Part shown: in pieces, positions 1 to 12,850 of the stretch
Numbering within the stretch: the first letter of the stretch is position 1
Layout of the letters: the number at the start of each line of letters is the position of its first letter
IMG/VR virus record: IMGVR_UViG_2684622618_000017
DNA: 12,850 nt
Reading direction: 5' to 3' (one strand)
From: a virus
Lineage: Duplodnaviria; Heunggongvirae; Uroviricota; Caudoviricetes
The notes under the pieces: model-generated
What the model was told of the DNA's origin: nothing
The model's input: only the letters and a program-made list of their open reading frames with translations
The model's database searches: none
Translations under genes and position numbers: made by a program

Positions 1-32
1 TTCTGATTAGCCAGGTAACACAGTGTTATGAC

Positions 33-59
33 AGCCCGCCGGTTCAGGCGGGCTTTTTT
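33..59 (+). terminator. Predicted rho-independent terminator (GC stem gcccgcc / ggcgggc, loop ggttca, then T6)
   Basis: Perfect 7-bp GC-rich inverted repeat followed by tttttt, directly after a TGA at 4-6 that may end an upstream gene. Confidence 0.6.
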
Positions 60-64
60 GTGGG

Positions 65-3008
65 GTGAATATGGCAGTAAAGATTTCAGGTGTACTGAAA
101 GACGGCACAGGAAAACCGGTAGAGAACTGCACCATTCAACTGAAAGCCAGACGTAACAGCGCCACGGTGGTGGTGAACACGGTGGCCTCTGAAAATCCGG
201 ATGAAGCCGGTCGTTACAGCATGGACGTTGAGTACGGTCAGTACAGCGTNNNNNNNNNNNNNNNNNNNNNNNNNNNNNNNNNNNNNNNNNNNNNNNNNNT
301 CACATGCCGGGACCATCACCGTGTATGAAGATTCTCAACCCGGTACGCTGAATGATTTTCTTGGTGCCATGACTGAGGATGATGTCCGTCCGGAGGCACT
401 GCGCCGTTTTGAGCTGATGGTGGAAGAGGTGGCGCGTAACGCGTCCGCGGTGGCACAGAACACGGCAGCCGCGAAGAAGTCAGCCAGCGATGCCAGCACA
501 TCAGCCCGTGAGGCGGCAACCCATGCGACTGATGCTGCGGACTCAGCACGCGCAGCCAGCACGTCAGCCGGACAGGCCGCGTCGTCGGCTCAGTCAGCGT
601 CTTCCAGCGCAGGAACGGCATCAACAAAGGCTACTGAAGCATCAAAAAGTGCTGCCGCTGCAGAGTCCTCAAAAAGCGCGGCGGCTACCAGTGCCGGTGC
701 GGCGAAAACGTCAGAAACGAATGCGGCAGTGTCACAACAATCAGCCGCCACTTCTGCATCCACCGCGACCACGAAAGCGTCAGAAGCTGCCTCCTCAGCC
801 AGGGATGCGTCGGCTTCAAAAGAGGCGGCAAAATCATCAGAAACGAGCGCAGCCTCGAGCGCCAGTAGTGCAGCCTCCTCGGCAACGGCGGCAGGCAATT
901 CCGCGAAGGCGGCCAAAACGTCTGAGACAAACGCTAAGTCCTCTGAAACGGCAGCAGAACAGAGTGCCTCCGCAGCAGCAGGCTCAAAAACAGCGGCTGC
1001 ATTATCTGCCAGTGCCGCGTCAACAAGTGCCGGGCAGGCCTCAGCCAGTGCCACCGCCGCCGGAAAATCGGCAGAAAGTGCCGCATCGTCTGCTTCAACA
1101 GCCACAACGAAGGCTGGCGAAGCCACTGAACAGGCCAGCGCAGCAGCGAGTTCTGCTTCCGCAGCGAAGACATCCGAAACGAACGCGAAAGCGTCGGAAA
1201 CCAGCGCAGAATCCTCAAAAACGGCTGCCGCATCGTCAGCCAGTTCGGCGGCGTCATCGGCATCATCTGCGTCTGCTTCAAAAGATGAGGCGACCAGACA
1301 AGCGTCAGCAGCGAAGAGCAGCGCCACGACGGCATCCACGAAGGCGACAGAGGCAGCTGGTAGTGCGACGGCAGCAGCTCAGAGCAAAAGTACGGCGGAA
1401 TCTGCAGCAACGCGCGCTGAGACAGCGGCAAAACGGGCAGAGGATATTGCATCCGCCGTGGCGCTTGAGGATGCGAGCACGACGAAAAAGGGGATAGTAC
1501 AGCTCAGCAGTGCGACTAACAGCACTTCCGAGTCACTGGCGGCAACGCCAAAAGCCGTTAAGGCCGCGTATGAGCTGGCTAACGGGAAATACACCGCACA
1601 GGATGCAACGACAGCACAGAAAGGGATAGTTCAGCTTAGCAACGCGACCAACAGCACATCTGAAATGCTGGCGGCAACGCCAAAGTCGGTAAAGGCAGCC
1701 TATGACCTTGCTAACGGGAAATATACTGCTCAGGACGCTACGACAGCACAAAAAGGAATTGTCCAGCTCAGTAGTGCAACCAACAGCGCATCTGAAACGC
1801 TTGCCGCGACACCGAAAGCAGTGAAAGCAGCTAATGATAATGCGAATGGTCGGGTACCTTCTGCCCGTAAGGTGAATGGTAAGGCGCTTTCATCGGATAT
1901 AACACTGACGCCGAAAGATATTGGTACGCTTAACTCAACAACAATGTCATTCAGCGGTGGTGCTGGTTGGTTCAAATTAGCAACGGTAACCATGCCACAG
2001 GCGAGTTCTGTTGTTTCAATTACGTTGATTGGTGGCGCGGGATTTAACGTGGGGTCACCTCAACAGGCAGGTATATCTGAACTTGTTTTGCGTGCAGGTA
2101 ATGGTAATCCGAAGGGGATTACTGGTGCTTTATGGCAGCGCACATCGACAGGGTTTACAAATTTTGCCTGGGTCAATACATCTGGTGATACTTACGATAT
2201 TTACGTTGCAATCGGAAATTATGCGACTGGTGTAAATATTCAATGGGATTATACCAGTAATGCCAGCGTGACGATTCATACGTCACCAGCATATTCTGCT
2301 AATAAGCCGGAAGGGTTAACGGACGGTACAGTTTATTCACTCTATACGCCATCAGAGCAGTTTTATCCGCCTGGCGCACCAATCCCGTGGCCATCAGATA
2401 CCGTTCCGTCTGGCTATGCCCTGATGCAGGGGCAGACTTTTGACAAATCTGCATACCCGAAACTTGCAGCCGCTTATCCGTCAGGCGTGATCCCTGATAT
2501 GCGTGGCTGGACGATTAAGGGCAAACCTGCCAGTGGTCGGGCCGTATTGTCTCAGGAACAGGACGGCATTAAATCGCACACCCACAGCGCCAGCGCATCC
2601 AGTACGGATTTGGGGACGAAAACCACATCGTCGTTTGATTACGGCACTAAATCCACGAATAACACCGGGGCGCACACGCACAGTGTGAGCGGTACAGCCG
2701 CAAGTGCCGGAAACCATACTCATAGTGTCACAGGCGCATCAGCAGTCAGCCAGTGGTCACAAAATGGGTCAGTACATAAGGTAGTGTCTGCGGCCAGTGT
2801 GAATACAAGTGCTGCAGGAGCGCACACTCATAGTGTCAGCGGCACAGCTGCATCTGCAGGTGCTCACGCACATACTGTCGGTATTGGTGCTCATACGCAC
2901 TCTGTTGCGATTGGCTCACATGGACACACCATCACCGTTAACGCTGCGGGTAACGCGGAAAACACTGTCAAAAACATCGCATTTAACTACATTGTGAGGC
3001 TTGCATAA
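65..3008 (+). CDS. stf: Side tail fibre protein, lambda Stf / Rac StfR-like; interrupted by N-run 250-299, which shifts the apparent frame
   Basis: N-terminus [17 protein letters not shown]...[12 protein letters not shown] and ...[20 protein letters not shown] match the lambda/Rac Stf N-terminus from memory. Long Ala/Ser/Thr-rich low-complexity region, three tandem 44-aa [15 protein letters not shown]-type repeats, His-rich GAHTHS repeats and a C-terminal [11 protein letters not shown] as in lambda Stf. Track ORFs 65..328 and 201..3008 are one gene split by the non-length-preserving gap. Confidence 0.88.
250..299. other. Run of 50 N (assembly gap or mask) inside stf; not length-preserving
   Basis: Flanking codons are in different frames. 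By comparison with lambda Stf about 28 nt would be expected here. Confidence 0.9.
1488..1851 (+). repeat. About 2.75 tandem copies of a 132-bp (44-aa) repeat inside stf
   Basis: [44 protein letters not shown] repeated with few substitutions at about 1488, 1620 and 1752; the same motif is shared by lambda Stf and P2 gpH. Confidence 0.8.
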
Positions 3009-3875
3009 TGGCATTCAGAATGAGTGAACAACCACGGACCATAAAAATTTATAATCTGCTGACCGGAACTAATGAATTTATTGGTGAAGGTGACGCATAT
3101 ATTCCGCCTCATACAGGTCTGCCAGCAAACAGTACCTATATTGCACCGCCAGATATTCCGGCTGGCTTCGTGGCTGTTTTCAACAGTGATGAGTCATCGT
3201 GGCATCTCGTTGAAGATCATCGGGGTAAAACGGTTTATGACGTGGCTTCCGGCGACGCGTTATTTATTTCTGAACTCGGCTCATTACCGGAAAATGTTAC
3301 CTGGTTATCGCCGGAAGGGGAGTTTCAGAAGTGGAACGGCACAGCCTGGGTGAAAGATGCAGAAGCAGAAAAACTGTTCCGGATCCGGGAGGCGGAAGAA
3401 ACAAAAAACAGCCTGATGCAGGTAGCCAGTGAGCATATTGCGCCACTTCAGGATGCNNNNNNNNNNNNNNNNNNNNNNNNNNNNNNNNNNNNNNNNNNNN
3501 NNNNNNCATCGGGGTAAAACGGTTTATGACGTGGCTTCCGGCGACGCGTTATTTATTTCTGAACTCGGTCCGTTACCGGAAAATGTTACCTGGTTGTCGC
3601 CGGATGGAGAGTGTCAGAAGTGGAACGGCACATCCTGGGCGAAAGATGCAGAAGCAGAAAAACTGTTTCGGGTACGGGAGGCAGAAGAAACAAAAAACAG
3701 CCTGATGCAGGTAGCCAGTGAGCATATTGCGCCACTTCAGGATGCCGTAGATTTGGATATTGCGACGGAGGAAGAGGCATCGTTACTGGCTGCATGGAAG
3801 ACATATCGGGTATTGTTGAATCGTGTTGATACAACAGTAGCAGCGGATGTTGAGTGGCCAGTCGCCCCACAATAA
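3008..3875 (+). CDS. tfa: Tail fibre assembly protein, lambda Tfa-like; interrupted by N-run 3457-3506 with duplicated flanks
   Basis: [34 protein letters not shown]... and C-terminal ...[27 protein letters not shown] match lambda Tfa from memory. ATG overlaps the stf stop (TAATG at 3006-3010). Confidence 0.85.
3218..3745 (+). repeat. Direct repeat: 3218-3456 and 3507-3745 (239 bp each, roughly 13 mismatches) flanking the gap
   Basis: Both copies start catcggggtaaaacggtttatgacgtggc and end gcgccacttcaggatgc; they differ at scattered positions, some changing amino acids (for example [16 protein letters not shown] versus [16 protein letters not shown]). Confidence 0.85.
3457..3506. other. Run of 50 N (assembly gap or mask) inside tfa
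   Basis: N-run flanked by a 239-bp direct repeat at about 94-95% identity. Confidence 0.9.
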
Positions 3876-3883
3876 AAAGAAAA

Positions 3884-3909
3884 AGCCATCGACAGAAATA
3901 TCGATGGCT
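3884..3909. terminator. Bidirectional rho-independent terminator between convergent tfa and the acetyltransferase gene
   Basis: Inverted repeat agccatcga / tcgatggct with an 8-nt loop, A-tract upstream and T-rich sequence downstream; on the - strand the hairpin is followed by ttttcttttt. Confidence 0.7.
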
Positions 3910-3918
3910 TTATGTACT

Positions 3919-4491
3919 CTATTTATACAATACAACACCACTCTTTTTAGTTATATATGTGCAGTTTGATGGTATATCTTTATTTATAAAAGACATTGCA
4001 CCTATTTTTACATTATCCCCAATTTTACGTGATAATCCAATGATGCAACAATTAGCTCCGATATCAACGTTACTACCAATTTTTACTCTTGAACTAGGCA
4101 TATCACCATCTATCTGTCCAATGGTAGTATTCTGTCGTAATACCAGATTTTCACCCGCATCAACAGCAAAATGAACAACAATTCCAGCATGATGGGGAAT
4201 TGTCAACCCTTTTCCAATATTTGCGCCCAATCCTATTTCACAACCAAACTTGTTAATTATTTTACTGTTTAACTTTTTGGCTGCTTTCTTATGTAATTTA
4301 TTACCATTAATATACATTTCGTTAGCCAACCGCCACCAGAAAAGGAAATTCCGGTTACGCTGCTTTTTCTCTCTTAAAAGCCTCCAGATATCCATACGTT
4401 TCCGCCGAATTACTTCATGTTTCCAGAAGTTTTTTAAATTAGTAGAGTTTCCAAATAAAACAAAGTGAATTGCCATTAAGTAAGATAGCAC
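3919..4491 (-). CDS. Hexapeptide-repeat O-acetyltransferase, WcaB/CysE (serine acetyltransferase)-like; AT-rich moron
   Basis: Left-handed beta-helix hexapeptide motifs (IGKGLTIPHHAGIVVH..., IGSNVDIGANCCIIG..., IGDNVKIGAMSFI) and an N-terminal region resembling the WcaB family. GTG at 4491 has a strong SD (aaggag, 6-nt spacer); the upstream ATG at 4524 lacks an SD. Roughly 30% GC against roughly 50-55% for the neighbours. Confidence 0.75.
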   Translation of the reverse strand: MLSYLMAIHFVLFGNSTNLKNFWKHEVIRRKRMDIWRLLREKKQRNRNFLFWWRLANEMYINGNKLHKKAAKKLNSKIINKFGCEIGLGANIGKGLTIPHHAGIVVHFAVDAGENLVLRQNTTIGQIDGDMPSSRVKIGSNVDIGANCCIIGLSRKIGDNVKIGAMSFINKDIPSNCTYITKKSGVVLYK

Positions 4492-4542
4492 GATAATCTC
4501 CTTAATTATTATTTCAGACCACACATGTTATAAGGTTAAGAG

Positions 4543-4571
4543 ATTATAAAATCCTGTTATTTGTTATTCAA
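4543..4571 (-). promoter_or_regulatory. Sigma70-like promoter for the acetyltransferase gene: -35 TTGAAT, 17-bp spacer, -10 TATAAT
   Basis: On the - strand: TTGAAT (plus 4566-4571), 17 bp, perfect TATAAT (plus 4543-4548), about 45 nt upstream of the GTG start. Confidence 0.55.
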
Positions 4572-4604
4572 AAACAATTTTCTGAGAAGGACATACAACA
4601 GCAA

Positions 4605-4638
4605 GTCGCCAGTCACCTTCATCAGGAAATTGGCGACA
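4605..4638. other. Imperfect inverted repeat downstream of U (gtcgcca ... tggcgac)
   Basis: 7-bp arms with a roughly 20-nt loop and no clear T-tract; a weak terminator candidate at best. Confidence 0.2.
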
Positions 4639-4647
4639 TACGTTAAA

Positions 4648-5136
4648 TCAGAGCAGCCCCTTAACTGAGCTGGCCGCGCTATTAAGGGATGATGTCACCT
4701 TATCTTTGAAGCCGGACAGCATATCGCTGAACGATGAGGATTGCAGGCGCTCCCGCAAATCCTCATCACAGCGTTCAAGAGTCAGTGAAAATTCTATCTT
4801 TTTCGCCTTACCGTAGCGATCAAACTCGGAGCGGGTCGTATTCGTTCCGGTCAGGACATACATGCCGTAAATCTGCCCGACGCCATCAATCAAAGGCCAA
4901 GGACGTCCTGTATATGCCTGCGTGGTCAACAACGACAGCGACACTTCGCCACCAGTAATCTCAGGATAAAGAACACCAGAAAGAACGATGCGATCATCAC
5001 CTGCACCGATATACTGCCAGCTTGCTGAACGGTTAACGCGTTCATTTTTCACATGTCGCCAGCTTTTGTTTTGCTGTAACTGCTGATGCGGCAACGTGCG
5101 CAGCTCAAAAACAAACATGCCGTAGATCATCATCAT
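4648..5136 (-). CDS. U: P2-like tail protein gpU
   Basis: MMMIYGMFVFELRTLPHQQLQ...WQYIGAGDDRIVLSGVLYPEITGG resembles P2 gpU from memory. Start chosen at the ATG at 5136 (SD gaggag with 8-nt spacer); the track start at 5142 is only 2 nt from the SD. Confidence 0.8.
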   Translation of the reverse strand: MMMIYGMFVFELRTLPHQQLQQNKSWRHVKNERVNRSASWQYIGAGDDRIVLSGVLYPEITGGEVSLSLLTTQAYTGRPWPLIDGVGQIYGMYVLTGTNTTRSEFDRYGKAKKIEFSLTLERCDEDLRERLQSSSFSDMLSGFKDKVTSSLNSAASSVKGLL

Positions 5137-5148
5137 GGCCATGACTCC

Positions 5149-7961
5149 TCAATCTTTATCGTAAAAACTGCCACGCCTGGCACGGGCGCGCCGTTCCATT
5201 TCTGCCCTGACCATTTCGCCGACCAGTTTCGCCAGTTCGCGGGGATTCTGCGTAACAACGTTATGCAGATGAACATGAATTTCACCGCCAAATCCGGAGG
5301 CAACAGGCTCCCGGTTACGGGAAGTTGCAGGAACTGATGCCACTGGCGATCGTATGGCCTCCACCACCGGGCGGGAGCTGGCCGCAACAACAGGGACCAG
5401 CGCCGGAGGCAGCGGAGCCGGGACCACGGGTGTGATATTAATTGCGGGGGCAGGCTTACTGACCTGCGCAATCTTCCGCTCCTGCCACTCCCCACGAACA
5501 GCAAGTGCGCGGGGCAGGTTCTTAAAGACAATATCGCCGGGGCCAATGCGTTTTTTTGTCTCATCAACCAGCTTACCTGTGTTATCAGCAATTTTGCTGA
5601 GTCTGCGTAGCGTGCCGGTATTGCTGTCTGTGAGAGGTTTGTTGTCTTTGGGTTTATCATCTCCGGTGCCATTGCTATTTCCCGCAGACTTCGGCGGATT
5701 GATTTTCGCAATGTCTCCCTGAAACAGAGCAACCTTGTCCTGAAGAATGGCCGCACGTTGTGCGTCTTCGATTTTCTTGCGCGCCCTTTCCGCTTCATCC
5801 GGAAGCACACCGAGTTTTTCAAGTATCCACGCCAGCGTATCCAGCAACATTTTTGCAGGCGTCAGAACAAGCTGTAACGCACCACCAAGAACGTTACCGA
5901 ATACCTCGCCAGCACTGGTACATTTATCCAGCGTTTCCTTGCTGGACTCCATCGGTGACAGCAGCGATTTAAACCAGTTAAACACCTGGCTGAACCGCTT
6001 CCGATTACGTCAAAAACAGGGCCAAACCGTTCAAAGGTGTCGCGCAACGGGGTCAGCCTTTCCATAATCCCGCTGAACACCCCGGCAAAGAAAGCCCTGA
6101 TAGGATCCCAGTATTTCCAGATAAGAACGGCAGCTCCGGCAAGCGCAGCCACGATAAGACCAACCGGACTGAACAACGCCCCGATAACGCCTCCCAGTAA
6201 AGAAACGGAACCCGTCACCATTCCCCATAGCGCAGGTAACACCCTGACGACATTCATTGACCGGGTAAGAATGTCAAAACCAAGACGCAGGGTGGCCAGC
6301 TTCCCGTAAAGCACCCCAATAACCAGCGACAACGAGCCAATCGTTGCAGTCATTGCCAGCAACGCACCGCCTGCTATCAGTAGCTGGCGCGTCAGTACCG
6401 GATGGGCCTGCGCCAGCGAGGTGATTTTTTCAAGCACCCGCGTGAGCCACTGCGTGACAGAACGCAGCGGACCGTCAACCAGATCACTGATGCGAATACG
6501 AAGACCTTCCCATGCGCTGTCGAGATTTTTCAGGTCCCCATCAAGATTATCAGCCATTACTTTTGCGACGCGATCGGCCTCTCCCCTTGCCCCCTGCAAT
6601 TCTCTGGTCAGTTTTTGCAGCTCTCCTGAACCAGCCGCCGCAACAAGCGTCTGCAAACCAACGAACGCCTCTTCTCCGGCGATGTCCTTGAAGAAGGAGA
6701 CCTGGTCCACCTGTCCGTATTTTTGTGTCGCCTTATAGAGATCAAGCAGCACATCCTCCATCGGGCGCATTTTGCCTCTGGCGTCAGCAACTGACACCCC
6801 CAGCTCTTTCAGTGCATCAGCCGCAGCTTTTGGCGGTGATGCAAGGCGGGACAGACTTGCGCGCATGGCCGTGCCAGCATCGCTTCCGCGAAGACCATTA
6901 TTGGCAAGCATCCCGGCCATGGCCGCCGCTTCTTCAAGACTGATACCAAGTTTTGCGGCAACCGGACCGGTATACTTCATGGTTTCGCCCAGCGCGCGTA
7001 AATCAGTATTGGTCCGGGTAAATGCTGCTGTCAGCGTATCGCCCACCCGGTCCATTTGATCGGCTGTCAGGTTGAACTGTGTGAGGATATTGGAGCCTAT
7101 ATCAGCCGTCTCGCCGAGTTCGACGCCACCTGCCAGCGCCATATTAAGAACACCGGGCAATGCGGCCTGAATGGCCTGCGGAGTAAAACCAGCCATTGCC
7201 AGAAAGCTCTGCCCACTGGCGGCATCACTCGCAGTAAACTGTGTTTCAGCAAGTTTTAACGCCTGCTCACGCAGCGCCTTAAACTGCGGGCTGTTTTTGT
7301 CGATTCGCGTCAGTGCCTGAACGCGGGACATCTCTTTGCCGAACCCGATCGCAGGCTGCAAAAAACGCCCGGCAGCATAGCCGCCCGCCGCTGCCGCACC
7401 AATTGCCAGCGCACCACCTGTTTTCAGTTTTCCCGCGGTTTCCTGCGCGTGCGAATACCGCTCACGCGCCTGCGTTACACGCGCAAGCGCCTGCCGTTCG
7501 CGTTCAAGCTGGTTGTTGTATTGTTCGGTGCGTCTGATGGCCTGCTGAATGGTGTTATCGCTGCCTGTCAGGGAAATGCCGTGGCGTTTCAGCTCTCCGC
7601 CAAGTTCCCTCATTTTCTGAATTTCCCGTGTGCGCGATTCATTCAGGCGTTCAAGCCGGGTGCTTAACTGCTGCATCAGCTTTTGTTGTTTTTCGCTGAG
7701 CACTGTACCCGTGCGTTGTAACTGATTAAGGGCGTTAAGCTGGCGTCGTGCTTTCACGATGCCAGCATCCGCTTTACTGACAGCGTCGCGGGCGCGCTCA
7801 AATGATCGCGCCTGACGCTCGAGATTTTTGATCGCCCCCTGCGTTCGCTGGATGGAGTCACCAAACTGCCCCATCAGGCGGCGTGCGTTTTCGGCAGGTC
7901 GGGTCAGCCTGTCAACGGCGCTGAAAGCGACCCGGATATCAAGAGTCTTCATTGTCTGCAT
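5149..7961 (-). CDS. T: P2-like tail tape measure protein gpT; reading frame disrupted near 5985-6005 (frameshift mutation or sequence error)
   Basis: ORF 5862..7988 (long coiled-coil/Ala-Gly-rich tape-measure-like protein) ends in an implausible Cys/Trp/Arg-rich tail, while the overlapping ORF 5149..5985 in another frame continues with plausible sequence (FNWFKSLLSPMESSKETLDK...GSFYDKD). Start placed at the ATG at 7961 or 7952; the track start at 7988 is GTG. Confidence 0.75.
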
Positions 7962-8468
7962 TCCCGCTGCGAAGTGCCGCCCGCTCACGCCAGCTAACCA
8001 CTTCGCCGGGCGTCATCATGAAGATTTCGGCGGGCGACCAGTTAAAAATAACGGCAATATCTGCCACAAAGTCTTCTATGTGCTCAAAGCACACAACCGT
8101 GATCAGGCTTCCGTCGCCTGTTCGTTCTTCCCGCCAGAGTCCGCACCGCTCAAAAAATTTACGGCAACCACACATAACTGAATAAAGTCACGGGATGCCA
8201 TTTTTTTGATCGTCACTTCATCCAGTCGCGGTGATGTCACGCGTGACAGCAGCGTAAACATGGATTCCGCTTTCAGATTCAGCACATCAGACAGCGACAA
8301 ATCTCGCAGAGATCCAGCCTGCTCAATAGCCCCGGTGATCTCCACATACGTGATTTTTTCGCCGCCTCGCTCAATTGGTTGGGTAAGTTTTACACCACGC
8401 TCACTGGTTTCTTTCACAGTGTCAGTAACTACCGTGTTTTCGGTATCGATGTTTTTCGTCTCTTTCAT
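7939..8468 (-). CDS. E': gpE+E' fusion made by programmed -1 translational frameshift
   Basis: The -1 frame downstream of the slippery site is open to 7939 (FFERCGLWREERTGDGSLITVVCFEHIEDF...), matching track ORF 7939..8175; this is the arrangement known for P2 E/E'. Confidence 0.65.
8103..8468 (-). CDS. E: P2-like tail protein gpE
   Basis: Position between the tube gene and tape measure gene; good SD (aaggag) 6 nt upstream of the ATG at 8468; the frame contains the T6G slippery site near its 3' end. Confidence 0.75.
   Translation of the reverse strand: MKETKNIDTENTVVTDTVKETSERGVKLTQPIERGGEKITYVEITGAIEQAGSLRDLSLSDVLNLKAESMFTLLSRVTSPRLDEVTIKKMASRDFIQLCVVAVNFLSGADSGGKNEQATEA
8151..8157 (-). 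promoter_or_regulatory. Slippery heptamer T TTT TTG (mRNA sense) for the E/E' -1 frameshift
   Basis: Zero-frame codons AAT TTT TTG (N F L) read on the - strand across plus 8151-8159. Confidence 0.65.
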
Positions 8469-8522
8469 CAGGAAACTCCTTTCAGTCAGAGGCGACGCAC
8501 TGCGCCGCCTGCATATTACTTA

Positions 8523-9035
8523 TCAGCCAAGCCCAAGCGCGGAACGGATGCGATCGGGCACAATGTCCTTGCCGTCCTTCCGGTAAATGAAGTTCAGCAG
8601 GTCAATCTCCCACAACGGGCGATCGTTAACACTCAGCTTGTAGTAGGTGTTTTTAATGGCGTAAGTGTGTGATGTGGCTTCGCCCTGTTTGGCTTCCCCC
8701 ATATCAATTTCCGTCACACGTCCGCGCATTTCGACTTCATACAGGTCGCTTTCATCATCGGTGTAGTATTCCCCCGCAAAACGCAGTAGCGTGCCGTCAA
8801 TCGTGCCGCCATACTTCAGGAACAGCTCACGAACTGCGCCCCCCATGACAAAGCTCGCATCAAGCGCGGAGTCGTCCAGGCCGAGGTCAATACTTACCGC
8901 ACCCATCATGCCACCACCCCGGTAGCTGTCGGTTTTGCGCGTCAGTTTAGGCAGGGTGACGGACGTCACCTTACCCACTTCGTTTTCACCATCCACAAAC
9001 AGCGTAAAAAAGCGAAGATGTTTTGGTACAGCCAT
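8523..9035 (-). CDS. FII: P2-like tail tube protein FII
   Basis: MAVPKHLRFFTLFVDGENEVGKVTSVTLPKLTRKTDSYRGGGMMGAVSIDLGLDD... resembles P2 FII; start overlaps the FI stop (TGATG). Confidence 0.85.
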   Translation of the reverse strand: MAVPKHLRFFTLFVDGENEVGKVTSVTLPKLTRKTDSYRGGGMMGAVSIDLGLDDSALDASFVMGGAVRELFLKYGGTIDGTLLRFAGEYYTDDESDLYEVEMRGRVTEIDMGEAKQGEATSHTYAIKNTYYKLSVNDRPLWEIDLLNFIYRKDGKDIVPDRIRSALGLG

Positions 9036-10219
9036 CAGGCACCTCCCAGCACCGCAAATGCGGGACCAAAGAATTCATCAGTAAACGACTGGTAAAGCTC
9101 CATGTCTTCCAGCGGAGGAACGGGCGTATATTTGTAGCGAATACGCACACGCCCCTGACGTAAATTCGTGGTGCTGTTATCCTCGATGTCATACCAGCAC
9201 TCCGCGCCAATCAGTTTCCCGGCAGTAACCAGTGAATCCAGTTTTGCCCTGATGGCACTGATAACATCCTTCACGTTCGCAGGTGTCAGTGGACTGTCGA
9301 TGGTTTCAAACTGCGCTTCCGCAATTGAATCAGCCAGCACCTGTGCGGTTCGGGTATACACCTCAAAGATGTAGGCGTTCGTTTCCGGTGTGCGGTTGCC
9401 CCAGAAGCGGAACCCGTTGCGACGAATAATGGTCGTGATTTCTTTGTTGTTGAGGCTGTTGGCATCACTGTCTTCGGCCTGCAACGACCAGAACACATGC
9501 CTCGACATCCCAAGCACATTTTTAACCGGAACGTTGGACAGCGATTTGTGCCAGCCCTGCTCATGGTCAATGTACGCACGAAGGCCGCACGCATAAGCAG
9601 GCGCGGGGAACGTTTCGTTTTTGCCACTTTTCAGGTTGTAGGCGATGAAGTCAGGCCATAAGAGCATCACCTCACGTTCGTTGAATTTCTGGCGGTAGGT
9701 AATCGCCTCAGCCATCGTGTTACAACCATGACATGTGGCATACACAAACGCGCGCAGTTTACCCGCAATCACGCACAGGGATTTTGTTACCGCCTCCGTG
9801 TCCAGCTCCGGCGCGGCCAGAATACGCGGACGGTATCCGATGCTTTCATCCTGCTCTGCAACAAGCAGCGCATACATCCCCGTATAGCTGCCGTCAGATT
9901 CAGAACCACCGATAACCAGTTGATCCTGCGTCTTACCGCCTTCTTCTTTGTGTTCAGCCACGCGAACGACGATCACTTTTGTGCTCACCTGGTCTGCGAT
10001 AGCCTTAAGCGCACGATAAAGCGTCCCCGTAGTCCCGCATTTTCCCAGCACGTCATTGACGCGGGTCAGCAGTGTGGGCTTGTTCAGCGGGAACAGCTCC
10101 GCGTCCGCATCATCTGCCGTTGCCACGATACCGATAACACTGGAATCAACATCATTAATCGCTGTTACCAGGTCGGTACTTTCCGTAACACGGGCACCAT
10201 GAAAACGAGTTTCACTCAT
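9035..10219 (-). CDS. FI: P2-like contractile tail sheath protein FI
   Basis: 394 aa; motifs ...FPLNKP...GTLYRALKAIADQ...KLRAFVYATCHGC...WPDF...DHEQGWHKSLSNV...GFRFWGNRT...YTRTAQVLADS...YKYTPVPPLEDM match P2 FI from memory. Confidence 0.9.
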   Translation of the reverse strand: MSETRFHGARVTESTDLVTAINDVDSSVIGIVATADDADAELFPLNKPTLLTRVNDVLGKCGTTGTLYRALKAIADQVSTKVIVVRVAEHKEEGGKTQDQLVIGGSESDGSYTGMYALLVAEQDESIGYRPRILAAPELDTEAVTKSLCVIAGKLRAFVYATCHGCNTMAEAITYRQKFNEREVMLLWPDFIAYNLKSGKNETFPAPAYACGLRAYIDHEQGWHKSLSNVPVKNVLGMSRHVFWSLQAEDSDANSLNNKEITTIIRRNGFRFWGNRTPETNAYIFEVYTRTAQVLADSIAEAQFETIDSPLTPANVKDVISAIRAKLDSLVTAGKLIGAECWYDIEDNSTTNLRQGRVRIRYKYTPVPPLEDMELYQSFTDEFFGPAFAVLGGA

Positions 10220-10376
10220 AGCTTCAGCCCCTTGTATCCGTTAAATGATTCGGCAACAATCATCACCCACCACGCGCGTAATCTCACCCCTGCGCCGTTC
10301 TCCCGCCACGGCGACAACAAAAAGCAGTAACCCCCTCCGCACGCACATGCGACCATGCCGCACAGGGAGGGAACAG

Positions 10377-10643
10377 ATGACCGACACCACCATGCAATTG
10401 CTCAGTCAGGGCACAGACCACGTGAAAGTGCCGGATTTTGATATTCTCGCGGAGGGTAAAACGCTGTCAGGCGTGGCAGAGCGCCTGATGAGCCTGTCAC
10501 TGACCGACAACCGGGGATTTGAGGCGGACCAGCTCACCATCACGCTGGATGATGCAGATGGTCAGTTGCAGCTACCGCCACGGGGCGCGCGCCTGACGGT
10601 TCTCATTGGCTGGAAAGGAGAACCGCTGACAGAAAAAGGCACT
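10377..10643 (+). pseudogene. D: 5' fragment (about 89 codons) of P2-like tail protein gpD (Phage_GPD / VgrG-like), truncated by IS30
   Basis: MTDTTMQLLSQGTDHVKVPDFDILAEGKTLSGVAERLMSLSLTDNRGFEADQLTITLDDADGQLQLPPRGARLTVLIGWKG carries the conserved LTDNRGFEADQL motif; SD gggaggg upstream; the ORF runs directly into the IS30 inverted repeat at 10644. Confidence 0.8.
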
Positions 10644-10669
10644 TGTAGATTCAATCTGTCAATGCAACA
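10644..10669. repeat. IS30 terminal inverted repeat (right end)
   Basis: 23 of 26 positions match the reverse complement of 11802-11827. Confidence 0.85.
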
Positions 10670-11765
10670 CCCCTTTCAATTATCTCTTTCGGTGTTTTGA
10701 ACTTCAGTGTCTTTCTCGGTCTGTTGTTTAGCTGAGCAGCAACCAGATCTTCATGTTGAGTATATTGGGCAAGACATGTCTTTTTAGGAAAGTACTGCCG
10801 AATTAGCCCATTTGTGTTCTCATTTGTTCCCCGCTGCCAAGGACTCTGAGGATCGCAGAAGTAAACTTTAACGCCGGTGCTGACAGTAAATTCTAGATGT
10901 CTGGCCAGTTCCATTCCTCTGTCCCATGTCAGTGATTTTCTGAGTTCTGACGGTAAACTCAGGAATTTGTCGGTAAGAGCCTGATTTACTGAGACAGAAT
11001 CTTTGCCCCTGAGTCTGAGGATGATCGTATAACGTGATTTTCGGTCTACAAGTGTGGCTATATGAGAGTTTTTTGTACCTGAGACTAAATCGCCCTCCCA
11101 ATGCCCTAGAGAGCGTCTGNNNNNNNNNNNNNNNNNNNNNNNNNNNNNNNNNNNNNNNNNNNNNNNNNNNNNNNGGCTACGAAAGTACAGCGTTTTATAA
11201 ATTGTCTCAGGTGATATTCGCAGCGTTTTTTGACGTGGTTTTGTTCGCCTTAACCATCCTGATATTTGCTCTGGAGACCATTTCATCTCCAGCTTTTCCA
11301 GAACAAGCTTTCGCAATGGTAAATTTTGATCCAGTAAGCACGGTTTTGGCCTTTTCGCCATTCTGTTGGCTCGGTTATTAGCATCAACAGCTTTGTAATA
11401 GCGTCTGCCCCGATTACGCNNNNNNNNNNNNNNNNNNNNNNNNNNNNNNNNNNNNNNNNNNNNNNNNNNCGATTACGCTGAACTTCACGTGAGATCGTCG
11501 AAGGACTGCGATTCAGCGCAGTAGCTATCGCACGAATGCTCATTTTGGCTGACAAACCAGCTCGTATCTCCTCGCGCTCAGACAGTGTCAGGTGAGCTAC
11601 AGCCCGCTTACGCTCATGGGGTTTTATGCCGCCAGTATCCCTTAACATAGTGAAGATCGTTCCGGGTTTTGAACCCAGGATATTCGCTATTTCACTGAAG
11701 CCTGTTCCGTTCTTCCATAGTTCAAAAACAGAGGCTTTTTCCTCTGCTGTAAATGTTCGTCTCAT
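10651..11765 (-). CDS. insI: IS30 transposase (DDE), interrupted by N-runs 11120-11174 and 11420-11469
   Basis: MRRTFTAEEKASVFELWKNGTGFSEIANILGSKPGTIFTMLRDTGGIKPHERKRAVAHLTLSEREEIRAGLS... and ...HWEGDLVSGTKNSHIATLVDRKSRYTIILRLRGKDSVSVNQALTDKF...QSPWQRGTNENTNGLIRQYFPK match IS30 Tnp from memory. Confidence 0.9.
11120..11174. other. Run of 55 N inside the IS30 transposase gene
   Basis: Roughly 148 nt of coding sequence (about 50 codons between ...YFRS and RRSLGHWEGD...) are replaced by 55 N. Confidence 0.9.
11420..11469. other. Run of 50 N inside the IS30 transposase gene, flanked by a duplicated 9-mer
   Basis: cgattacgc occurs on both sides; the flanking codons (...REVQRNR / RNRGRRYY...) show no coding sequence is actually missing. 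Confidence 0.9.
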
Positions 11766-11801
11766 TCAAAAAAACTCCGCAACCCCATGTTTTCACATAA
11801 C

Positions 11802-11827
11802 TGTTGCGTTGACCAATTGAATCTACA
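11802..11827. repeat. IS30 terminal inverted repeat (left end)
   Basis: Pairs with 10644-10669. Confidence 0.85.
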
Positions 11828-11841
11828 GTGGTCTGTTTTAA

Positions 11842-11937
11842 TATTTCTATTTCTATTTCTATTTCTATTTCTATTTCTATTTCTATTTCTATTTCTATTT
11901 CTATTTCTATTTCTATTTCTATTTCTATTTCTATTTG
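11842..11937. repeat. Perfect hexanucleotide microsatellite (TATTTC)15 plus one degenerate unit
   Basis: 15 consecutive exact tatttc units (11842-11931) then tatttg; begins 14 bp from the IS30 end, in an AT-rich intergenic region upstream of the HNH gene. Confidence 0.95.
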
Positions 11938-12130
11938 TTGTGATTTTTTCTTTAGTTCATGTATTTCGATTTGTTTCTGAATTATCGGGGGTAGTGTCTT
12001 CCCTTTTCCCTGAGGCTTATCATGCAGTTATTTTCGCCATCTTGGTATTGTGGAAATACCGACATCCATAGCTTTGGTGAGCTCTGTTCAGGTGGCCAAA
12101 TTCAGAAAACCATTACGGAGGAAGAAGGCG

Positions 12131-12697
12131 ATGGCTAAACCAGCGCGAAGACGATGTAACCGTAAAAGAGAAGATTTAACTGTTAAAAGGATATTTGAGT
12201 TACTAAGTTTCGATAAATCTACCGGGGTATTTAGATGGAAAGTTCCCACTCAGGGAAGGATAGCATTAAATAGTGTTGCTGGAGCTTTTGATTCCAACGG
12301 TTATTCAATGATCATGATAGATGGGCGTAGATATAAAACTCACGTCTTAGTTTTTTACATAACTCATAATCGTTGGCCTGCTGGTCAAATTGACCACGTT
12401 AATGGAATTAGGACCGACAATAGGCCAGAAAATTTAAGAGAATGCCTGCCAATAGAAAATTCAAGAAATATAAGGATCCGAAAGAATAGCAAATCAGGTT
12501 GCAGAGGGGTTACTTGGCACAAACGACAGAAAAAATGGAATGTTAGGCTAGGATTCCATGGCAAGAGTAAACACTTCGGATGCTTTGATGATCTGGAGTT
12601 AGCGGTACTAGTTGCTGAAGAAGCCCGAGATAAGTATTACGGTGATTTTTCCGGCAACGAAAGGAGCACTTATGCGAATCTATCGAAGGAAATGTAA
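12131..12697 (+). CDS. HNH homing-endonuclease-like protein with C-terminal AP2-type DNA-binding domain
   Basis: HNH signature ...[37 protein letters not shown] and AP2-like [54 protein letters not shown] ggaggaag upstream of the ATG at 12131. About 38% GC. The first 9 residues MAKPARRRC equal the lambda NinG N-terminus as recalled. Confidence 0.75.
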
Positions 12698-12850
12698 ATG
12701 TTGCAATGAATGGTTTATACCAAAATATCAAAATCAATATTGGTGTAATGAGATTTGTGGAACCAAGATAGCACTCGAACGACGAAGTAAAGAACGCGAA
12801 AAAGCGGAAAAGGCAGAAAAGGCAGCAGAGAAGAAACGACGACGAGAGGA
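12672..12850 (+). CDS. ninG: NinG/Rap-like protein, N-terminal part (runs off the window)
   Basis: [59 protein letters not shown] resembles the lambda NinG N-terminal zinc-ribbon region (…[28 protein letters not shown]…) from memory. SD aaggag 5 nt upstream; overlaps the 3' end of the HNH gene. Confidence 0.7.

Follow-up and report, generated by a model that had tools for sequence, protein, structure and literature searches.

The tail genes and the broken gene D

The window analyzed here is a 12,850-nt stretch of DNA from a tailed virus of the class Caudoviricetes (IMG/VR record IMGVR_UViG_2684622618_000017), and this report concerns the block of P2-family tail genes at its center, namely FI, FII, E/E', T and U, together with the start of gene D, which is read away from them. 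Genes were placed by means of an open reading frame (ORF) map and Pfam scans, and protein identities were obtained by BLASTP or alignment to the proteins of phages P88 (KP063541; Xuanwuvirus, Peduoviridae) and P2. The features of the locus are as follows:

4648-5142, minus strand: tail protein gpU, at the end of the leftward F transcription unit (PF06995, E = 1.5e-38)
5149-7952, minus strand: gpT tape-measure pseudogene (PF10145; aligned to P88 T)
8103-8468, minus strand: gpE (98% identical to P88 E; the PF10109 match is weak)
7939-8468, minus strand: E/E', the E' extension running down to 7939 (PF06528, Phage_P2_GpE, on the E' frame; matches the P88 E' sequence)
8523-9035, minus strand: FII tail tube protein (PF04985, E = 1.3e-47; 99.4% identical to P88 FII)
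9035-10219, minus strand: tail sheath protein FI, with which the leftward unit begins (PF04984, PF22671, PF17482)
10220-10376, no strand assigned: putative divergent control region (sequence identical to that of P88; promoter function predicted)
10377-10643, plus strand: 5' fragment of gpD, the baseplate hub, codons 1-89 of 366 (ATG at 10377; cut by IS30)
10644-11827, transposase on the minus strand: IS30 element (HTH_38 and rve domains; annotated 'IS30' in Sakai; broken by two runs of N)

The layout described in a first-pass annotation of the sequence, with FI through U on the minus strand (4648-10219) and the gpD start on the plus strand at 10377, is upheld by both the ORFs and the Pfam matches, and the gap between the divergent starts of FI and D is exactly 157 bp. 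Homologues of FI, FII, E/E', T and U are present in the order of the P2-family (Peduoviridae) sheath/tube module, at 32-46% identity to the P2 proteins by BLASTP. Overall, the proteins of the window are 91-99% identical to P88 proteins and only 32-59% identical to those of P2. For example, identity to the P88 and P2 counterparts, respectively, is 96.7% and 45% for FI, 99.4% and 46% for gpU, and 97.8% (over P88 gpD residues 1-89) and 59% for the D fragment; full-length P88 D matches PF05954. The slippery heptamer TTTTTTG of E/E' is intact at 8151-8157 on the minus strand, where a -1 frameshift to E' is predicted; the same E/E' frameshift is annotated in the P2 record.

The truncation of D and the disrupted frame of T, both noticed in the first-pass annotation, proved to be genuine lesions. 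Relative to P88, T carries a 1-nt deletion at 5996/5997, which leads to a stop at amino acid 696 of 935 and leaves two overlapping frames, and the gene is annotated as a pseudogene in Escherichia coli O157:H7 Sakai. An additional, in-frame 3-nt deletion relative to P88 lies at 7249/7250, and T is less conserved than any other gene of the module, with 91% identity over its N-terminal part compared with 97-99% for its neighbours. D is interrupted at codon 89 by IS30, whose terminal repeat TGTAGATTCAAT starts at 10644, immediately after the end of the D fragment at 10643 (terminal repeats were read directly). Beyond IS30, Sakai still has D codons 89-115 (17309-17383 of the Sakai locus extract), but the rest of D is missing along with ogr; therefore, D was first split by a simple IS30 insertion and its 3' part was deleted later.

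The window contains four runs of N (50-55 nt each, at 250-299, 3457-3506, 11120-11174 and 11420-11469), all of which lie outside positions 3507-11119. This core is one unbroken stretch that is 100% identical to prophage Sp13 in the finished genome of Sakai, with which it shares both the IS30 junction in D and the frameshift in T. EDL933 has an equivalent of the Sp13 locus, and 1,265 complete E. coli genomes contain at least 80% of window positions 3500-11000. Sp13, annotated in Sakai as a 'P2-like phage', appears in the literature as a defective P2-like prophage without most of its morphogenetic genes (PMC2669165). We found that Sakai Sp13 is without head genes, baseplate genes V-W-J-I, fibre gene H and ogr, and that the P88 segments surviving in it are the early/replication arm and the segment from U to the D fragment. 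The decay of this copy, i.e., IS30 in D, the T frameshift and the missing genes, is real, already published and separate from the order of its genes.

Gene order in P88 and its relatives

In P2, the F operon reads pF-FI-FII-E-E'-T-U-D on one strand and is followed by ogr, with the D start overlapping the U stop; the P2 record agrees with the first-pass annotation that FI, FII, E, E', T, U and D are co-oriented there. The window and P2 share a homologous set of tail genes, the E/E' -1 frameshift at TTTTTTG and an Ogr-type box ~83 nt before the FI ATG. However, the window does not have a P2-type F operon, since its D is divergent from FI and not downstream of U in one transcription unit. The order seen in the window is instead that of P88, the map of which reads V-W-J-I-H-G on the plus strand, an inverted fibre segment, a DNA invertase and U-T-E'-E-FII-FI on the minus strand, followed by a 157-bp gap and a full-length, 366-aa D on the plus strand. 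The sequence of this gap is identical to that in the window. As the first-pass annotation had reasoned, comparison of the P2 and P88 maps shows the layout that inversion of the FI-FII-E-E'-T-U block would produce relative to P2.

P88 is intact: its T is unbroken, ogr follows a full-length D, no head or baseplate gene is missing, and an invertible fibre segment lies beside U together with its invertase. In the window copy, by contrast, D is cut by IS30, T is frameshifted and an acetyltransferase moron occupies the place of the invertase. The gene directly 3' of D in P88 (34476-34634, plus strand) encodes an Ogr_Delta zinc finger (PF04606, E = 3.9e-14) with 41% identity to P2 Ogr; the GenBank record does not annotate it, and the corresponding gene has been lost from the window. 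Its position in P88 shows that P2's D-ogr linkage is kept in the inverted clade.

Thirteen phage records, including phiSM and P88, the latter having been studied most thoroughly, match window positions 4642-10644. Eleven of them do so as one colinear piece, and the other two are interrupted only by an insertion of the IS100 family (IS21-like). P88 and its relatives 500465-2, PhiR44_2, P884B11 and Citrobacter phiSM are colinear with this region at 91-97% DNA identity. Several phages with this order are viable: P88 is plaque-forming and has a burst size of about 65, and electron micrographs show its contractile tail (PMC5285337); phiSM, a phage of Citrobacter rodentium, also forms plaques (PMC6456863), as do SEN4/5, which show myovirus morphology by electron microscopy (PMC5261728). 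Among 80 close relatives of the window FI in IMG/VR, D was divergent from and upstream of FI in 78, with a gap of 156-157 bp, and was full length in 60 of these contigs; the remaining two ended before D. Isolated phages with the divergent layout also include Novemvirus phiT5282H (FI 75% identical) and Senquatrovirus SEN4 (FI 56%), so that it is common to three genera of Peduoviridae (Xuanwuvirus, Novemvirus and Senquatrovirus). Dagavirus (FI 48% identical) and P2 (45%) have the co-oriented layout.

The layout was also surveyed across species by scanning one genome per bacterial species with an alignment of FI and classifying the loci by tblastn. Results were as follows:

FI identity to the window of at least 55%: 39 loci; D divergent from FI in 39 of 39
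FI identity of 51% or less, with a D hit: 40 loci; D co-oriented in 40 of 40

One more locus (FI 50%) lay on a short contig that ended before any D. Hosts of the divergent loci were Salmonella, Citrobacter, Enterobacter, Kosakonia, Symbiopectobacterium, Mixta, Trabulsiella, Erwinia, Klebsiella, Brenneria, Raoultella, Pantoea, Pectobacterium, Yokenella, Providencia, Photorhabdus, Morganella, Xenorhabdus, Dryocola and Chania. In a neighbor-joining tree of FI, the two arrangement classes were reciprocally monophyletic, and the 41 FI proteins of the divergent type, including that of the window, formed one clade. The FI-D gap measured about 125-160 bp from ATG to ATG in all but one of 20 loci. The window has the arrangement that marks the P88-like clade, in which FI through U are antiparallel to V-G and to D-ogr and a short divergent gap separates FI from D.

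The divergent order is thus the native, inherited order of the P88-like branch of Peduoviridae and is in itself unremarkable. The first-pass annotation had named, as a finding that would count against its own proposal, a related phage family whose D natively diverges from FI; the P88-like clade is such a family. The simplest reading is one ancient inversion of the pF promoter-FI-FII-E/E'-T-U block relative to the P2 order, fixed since. Such an inversion would have occurred in the ancestor of the P88-like branch and would have left D, together with the ogr gene that lies behind it in intact members, with a native direction of transcription away from FI. The decay of the present copy would then be a later, independent process in which IS30 entered D at codon 89 and T lost one nucleotide. 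We hold with high confidence that the region is the tail-sheath/tube module of a P88-like (Xuanwuvirus-type) prophage of the P2 family, namely the defective Sp13, and that its gene order stems from one old, fixed inversion that included the promoter.

Some considerations weigh against this view. We infer a single inversion from a distance tree of a single protein, and recombination among phages could blur such a tree. Text searches of papers on P88, phiSM and SEN4/5 and of two surveys of P2-like phages found no explicit statement of the inversion; the only related mention was of an unrelated DNA-invertase gene, in the phiSM paper. The locus and its arrangement can already be seen in annotated public genomes and in published work on Sp13, P88, phiSM and SEN4/5; that they are already known rests on such genomes and not on a published analysis of the inversion.

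The first-pass annotation had read the layout and the damage together, as signs of a decaying or remodelled cluster. The decay stands, in view of IS30, the frameshift and the missing genes, whereas remodelling by inversion does not, the order being native to the P88 clade. It could still be supposed that the FI-U block was inverted locally, in this prophage or a recent ancestor, as part of that decay: the order differs from P2 exactly as an inversion predicts, and the copy is damaged by IS30 and a frameshift. However, relatives that are intact and plaque-forming have the identical order and an identical 157-bp junction sequence, and all 78 close relatives with D in view, as well as all 39 more distant ones, share the order. 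Indeed, since intact P88, phiSM and SEN4/5 have it too, the inversion and the decay are unrelated facts, and the link that had been drawn between them is lost. A general scan for inverted repeats returned no pair joining the proposed breakpoints (4525-4647 and 10220-10376), and in a direct test the matches did not exceed chance, the longest being 7 nt, a length reached in 80 of 200 shuffles. A local inversion is very unlikely. Even less credible is a programmed flip of the FI-U block by a DNA invertase of the Gin/Cin type, suggested by the invertase that lies directly beside the 3' end of U in P88. That enzyme adjoins a classical H'/G' fibre segment, its expected substrate, while the FI-U block has no flanking inverted repeats and keeps a single orientation in 117 relatives. 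Furthermore, Pfam scans found no invertase in the window, where the acetyltransferase holds its slot.

The window is a scaffold with four runs of N and with flanks from other prophages, so an artefact of assembly or scaffolding also had to be weighed. This explanation is correct for the flanks and was rejected for the core, which lies between the runs of N, matches finished Sakai at 100% and is represented (at least 80% of 3500-11000) in 1,265 complete genomes; as an account of the gene order it is extremely improbable. The remnant might also have been kept as a working tailocin (R-type bacteriocin) cluster, as would befit tail genes without head genes and relatives that include loci in Xenorhabdus and Photorhabdus. 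Against this, neither the tape-measure gene (frameshifted) nor the hub gene D (interrupted at codon 89) is intact, and Sakai Sp13 is without V-W-J-I, H and ogr. We consider a functional tailocin highly improbable.

The native status of the order in the P88-like branch has practical consequences. A gene order that deviates from the type phage P2 is not to be read as damage. The divergent FI-D layout is the norm for a large branch of the P2-like phages of Enterobacterales and is usable as a quick marker of that branch.

Flanks of the scaffold and the acetyltransferase gene

Among complete E. coli genomes, none contains 80% or more of the whole window, because the scaffold is chimeric. Positions 1-3456 match, at 100% identity, a lambdoid lom-stf-tfa region situated at another place in O157 genomes, and positions 11700-12850 match the IS30-HNH endonuclease-NinG region of a different, Sp17-type prophage. 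The sequences on either side of the last three runs of N are not colinear with any single genome, and two different copies of tfa, 94.6% identical over 239 bp, abut the second run (3457-3506). From its sequence, the window looks like a set of contigs, each ending at a repeat (tfa, IS30), that were scaffolded or concatenated. It differs from Sp13 in its flanks, since 1-3456 and the part beyond about 11119 are not Sp13 sequence but pieces of lambdoid prophages joined through runs of N. Judging from Sakai, the true neighbours of the core would be IS629 before tfaQ and, on the right, D codons 89-115 and then the leuZ-side end of the prophage. Two further features lie in the left part of the core:

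3507-3875, plus strand: 3' part of tfaQ, the Sp13 tail-fibre assembly gene (PF02413, Caudo_TAP; 5' end lost in the N run at 3457-3506)
3919-4524, minus strand: hexapeptide-repeat serine O-acetyltransferase, a cargo gene or moron (weak Hexapep Pfam match; RefSeq name 'serine O-acetyltransferase')

The tfaQ annotation of Sakai maps onto window positions 3459-3875, and the 100% identity to Sakai begins at 3507. ORFs 201-3008, 3008-3517 and 10651-11361 each cross runs of N. The large plus-strand ORF at 201-3008 is a lambda-type side tail fibre gene (PF08400) and not P2 gpH. Since the flanks outside 3507-11119 come from other prophages, the apparent 'H-G' pair at 201-3517 is not part of the tail module, and 201-3008 and 3008-3517 were rejected as P2 H and G; they are a lambdoid side-tail-fibre gene and tfa, joined through a run of N. 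On the right, a perfect hexanucleotide tandem repeat, (TATTTC) x 15.8, is found at 11842-11936, just beyond the right end of IS30. ORF 12050-12697 (plus strand) encodes an HNH_3 endonuclease domain and an AP2 DNA-binding domain and adjoins a NinG-type gene; it is part of the lambdoid-prophage flank rather than of the tail genes described above.

The slot between the fibre-assembly gene and U is filled differently in each phage: it holds the acetyltransferase in the window, the invertible fibre segment and invertase in P88, and fun(Z) in P2. Guanine-cytosine content is low in the acetyltransferase region (0.35-0.38 over 3882-4571), and a scan found a sigma-70-like promoter, TTGAAT-17-TATAAT (4571-4543), and a terminator with a 13-bp stem (3911-3882). 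With its low guanine-cytosine content and its own promoter and terminator, the acetyltransferase is therefore a typical moron. The same gene occurs beside tfa in the unrelated phages JL22 and Ro157c2YLVW.

The FI-D gap and its counterparts in P2 and P88

Late promoters that depend on Ogr/Delta are marked by a TGT-N12-ACA dyad centred about 55 nt before the transcription start and by a -10 hexamer, the -35 element being weak or missing. In the 157-bp gap of the window, an Ogr-type box, TCT-N12-ACA, with one mismatch is found at 10299-10316; in P88 the box lies at 33255-33272. A perfect TGT-N12-ACA box is absent from the gap in both the window and P88, the conserved box carrying the mismatch TCT/AGA. 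In 27 of 29 loci of the clade, a dyad of the form TGT-N12-ACA/AGA precedes the FI ATG by 80.5-88.5 nt, and the annotated activator site of pF in P2 is centred about 83 nt from the FI ATG. A promoter scan found no canonical sigma-70 promoter in the gap, as is expected for activator-dependent late promoters.

On each side of the box lies a -10-like hexamer. Toward FI, the window has GATGAT (ATCATC on the plus strand, 10259-10264), which starts 44 nt from the box centre; other members of the clade have GATTAT or GAATAT, and the box would thus stand at about -55. Toward D, the hexamer GACCAT (10351-10356), preceded by TGc, likewise starts 44 nt from the box centre and mirrors the FI side; elsewhere in the clade the D-side hexamers follow the pattern nAnnAT (AATCAT, AACTAT), and many are preceded by TGn, i.e., an extended -10. 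In a scan that took the best of six offsets per side, 23 of 27 loci had an nAnnAT hexamer toward FI and 25 of 27 had one toward D, most often 44 nt from the centre of the box. Members of the clade also share a conserved GCGCGCG-rich block (within 10272-10350), which separates the Ogr-type box from the D-side hexamer and lies beside the conserved TGn; it could be spacer composition, a second protein site or a Z-DNA-prone sequence.

Together, these elements suggest how the gap may work. The inverted block would have taken its Ogr-dependent late promoter, pF, along with it, and the single dyad box would serve a pair of late promoters placed back to back, with pF directed leftward and a D promoter directed rightward. 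The rightward unit would be D-ogr, because an Ogr_Delta homologue directly follows D in intact members. Judging from the conserved sequence and by analogy with the pP/pO promoters of P2, the shared box probably binds the Ogr homologue and drives both promoters. As for the fuller proposal, that the ancient inversion set the pF box back-to-back with D and that the box activates both pF and a new D-ogr promoter with a conserved TGn extended -10, we judge the arguments for and against it to be evenly balanced. The choice of the best of six offsets inflates the hexamer scores, and kinship among the loci inflates the apparent conservation. The D-side GACCAT of the window is a weak -10, and the leader that it implies is only about 14 nt. 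The shared-box model itself rests on sequence conservation and the analogy with P2.

This predicted bidirectional pF/pD promoter is the only mildly new element of the locus. If the model is true, ogr may be under its own positive control. A pF carried along by the inversion, with what appears to be a second shared-box promoter, would offer a small, testable case of regulatory architecture that survives, or is reused after, a rearrangement.

The closest known design is found at the head genes of P2. The P2 record gives a single 'activator binding site; pO, pP promoters' at 3057-3087, with divergent starts at 3016 and 3127, 55-56 nt away, and in the same scan the pP and pO hexamers were located at offsets 44-45 from the box centre. 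With one dyad box midway in a short divergent gap, this geometry matches that of the FI-D gap. The shared site in P2 is experimentally annotated and serves head genes, whereas its FI-D counterpart in the P88 clade is predicted from sequence. P88 also has a divergent gap between its portal and scaffold genes (Q and O; 154 bp, 14152-14305), with one TCT-N12-ACA box, then ACAAAAGC, at 14216, which lies 73.5 and 81.5 nt from the two start codons; the Q-O and FI-D gaps of P88 are of the same design. If the FI-D box is indeed shared, the pP/pO design has been recreated at a second locus.

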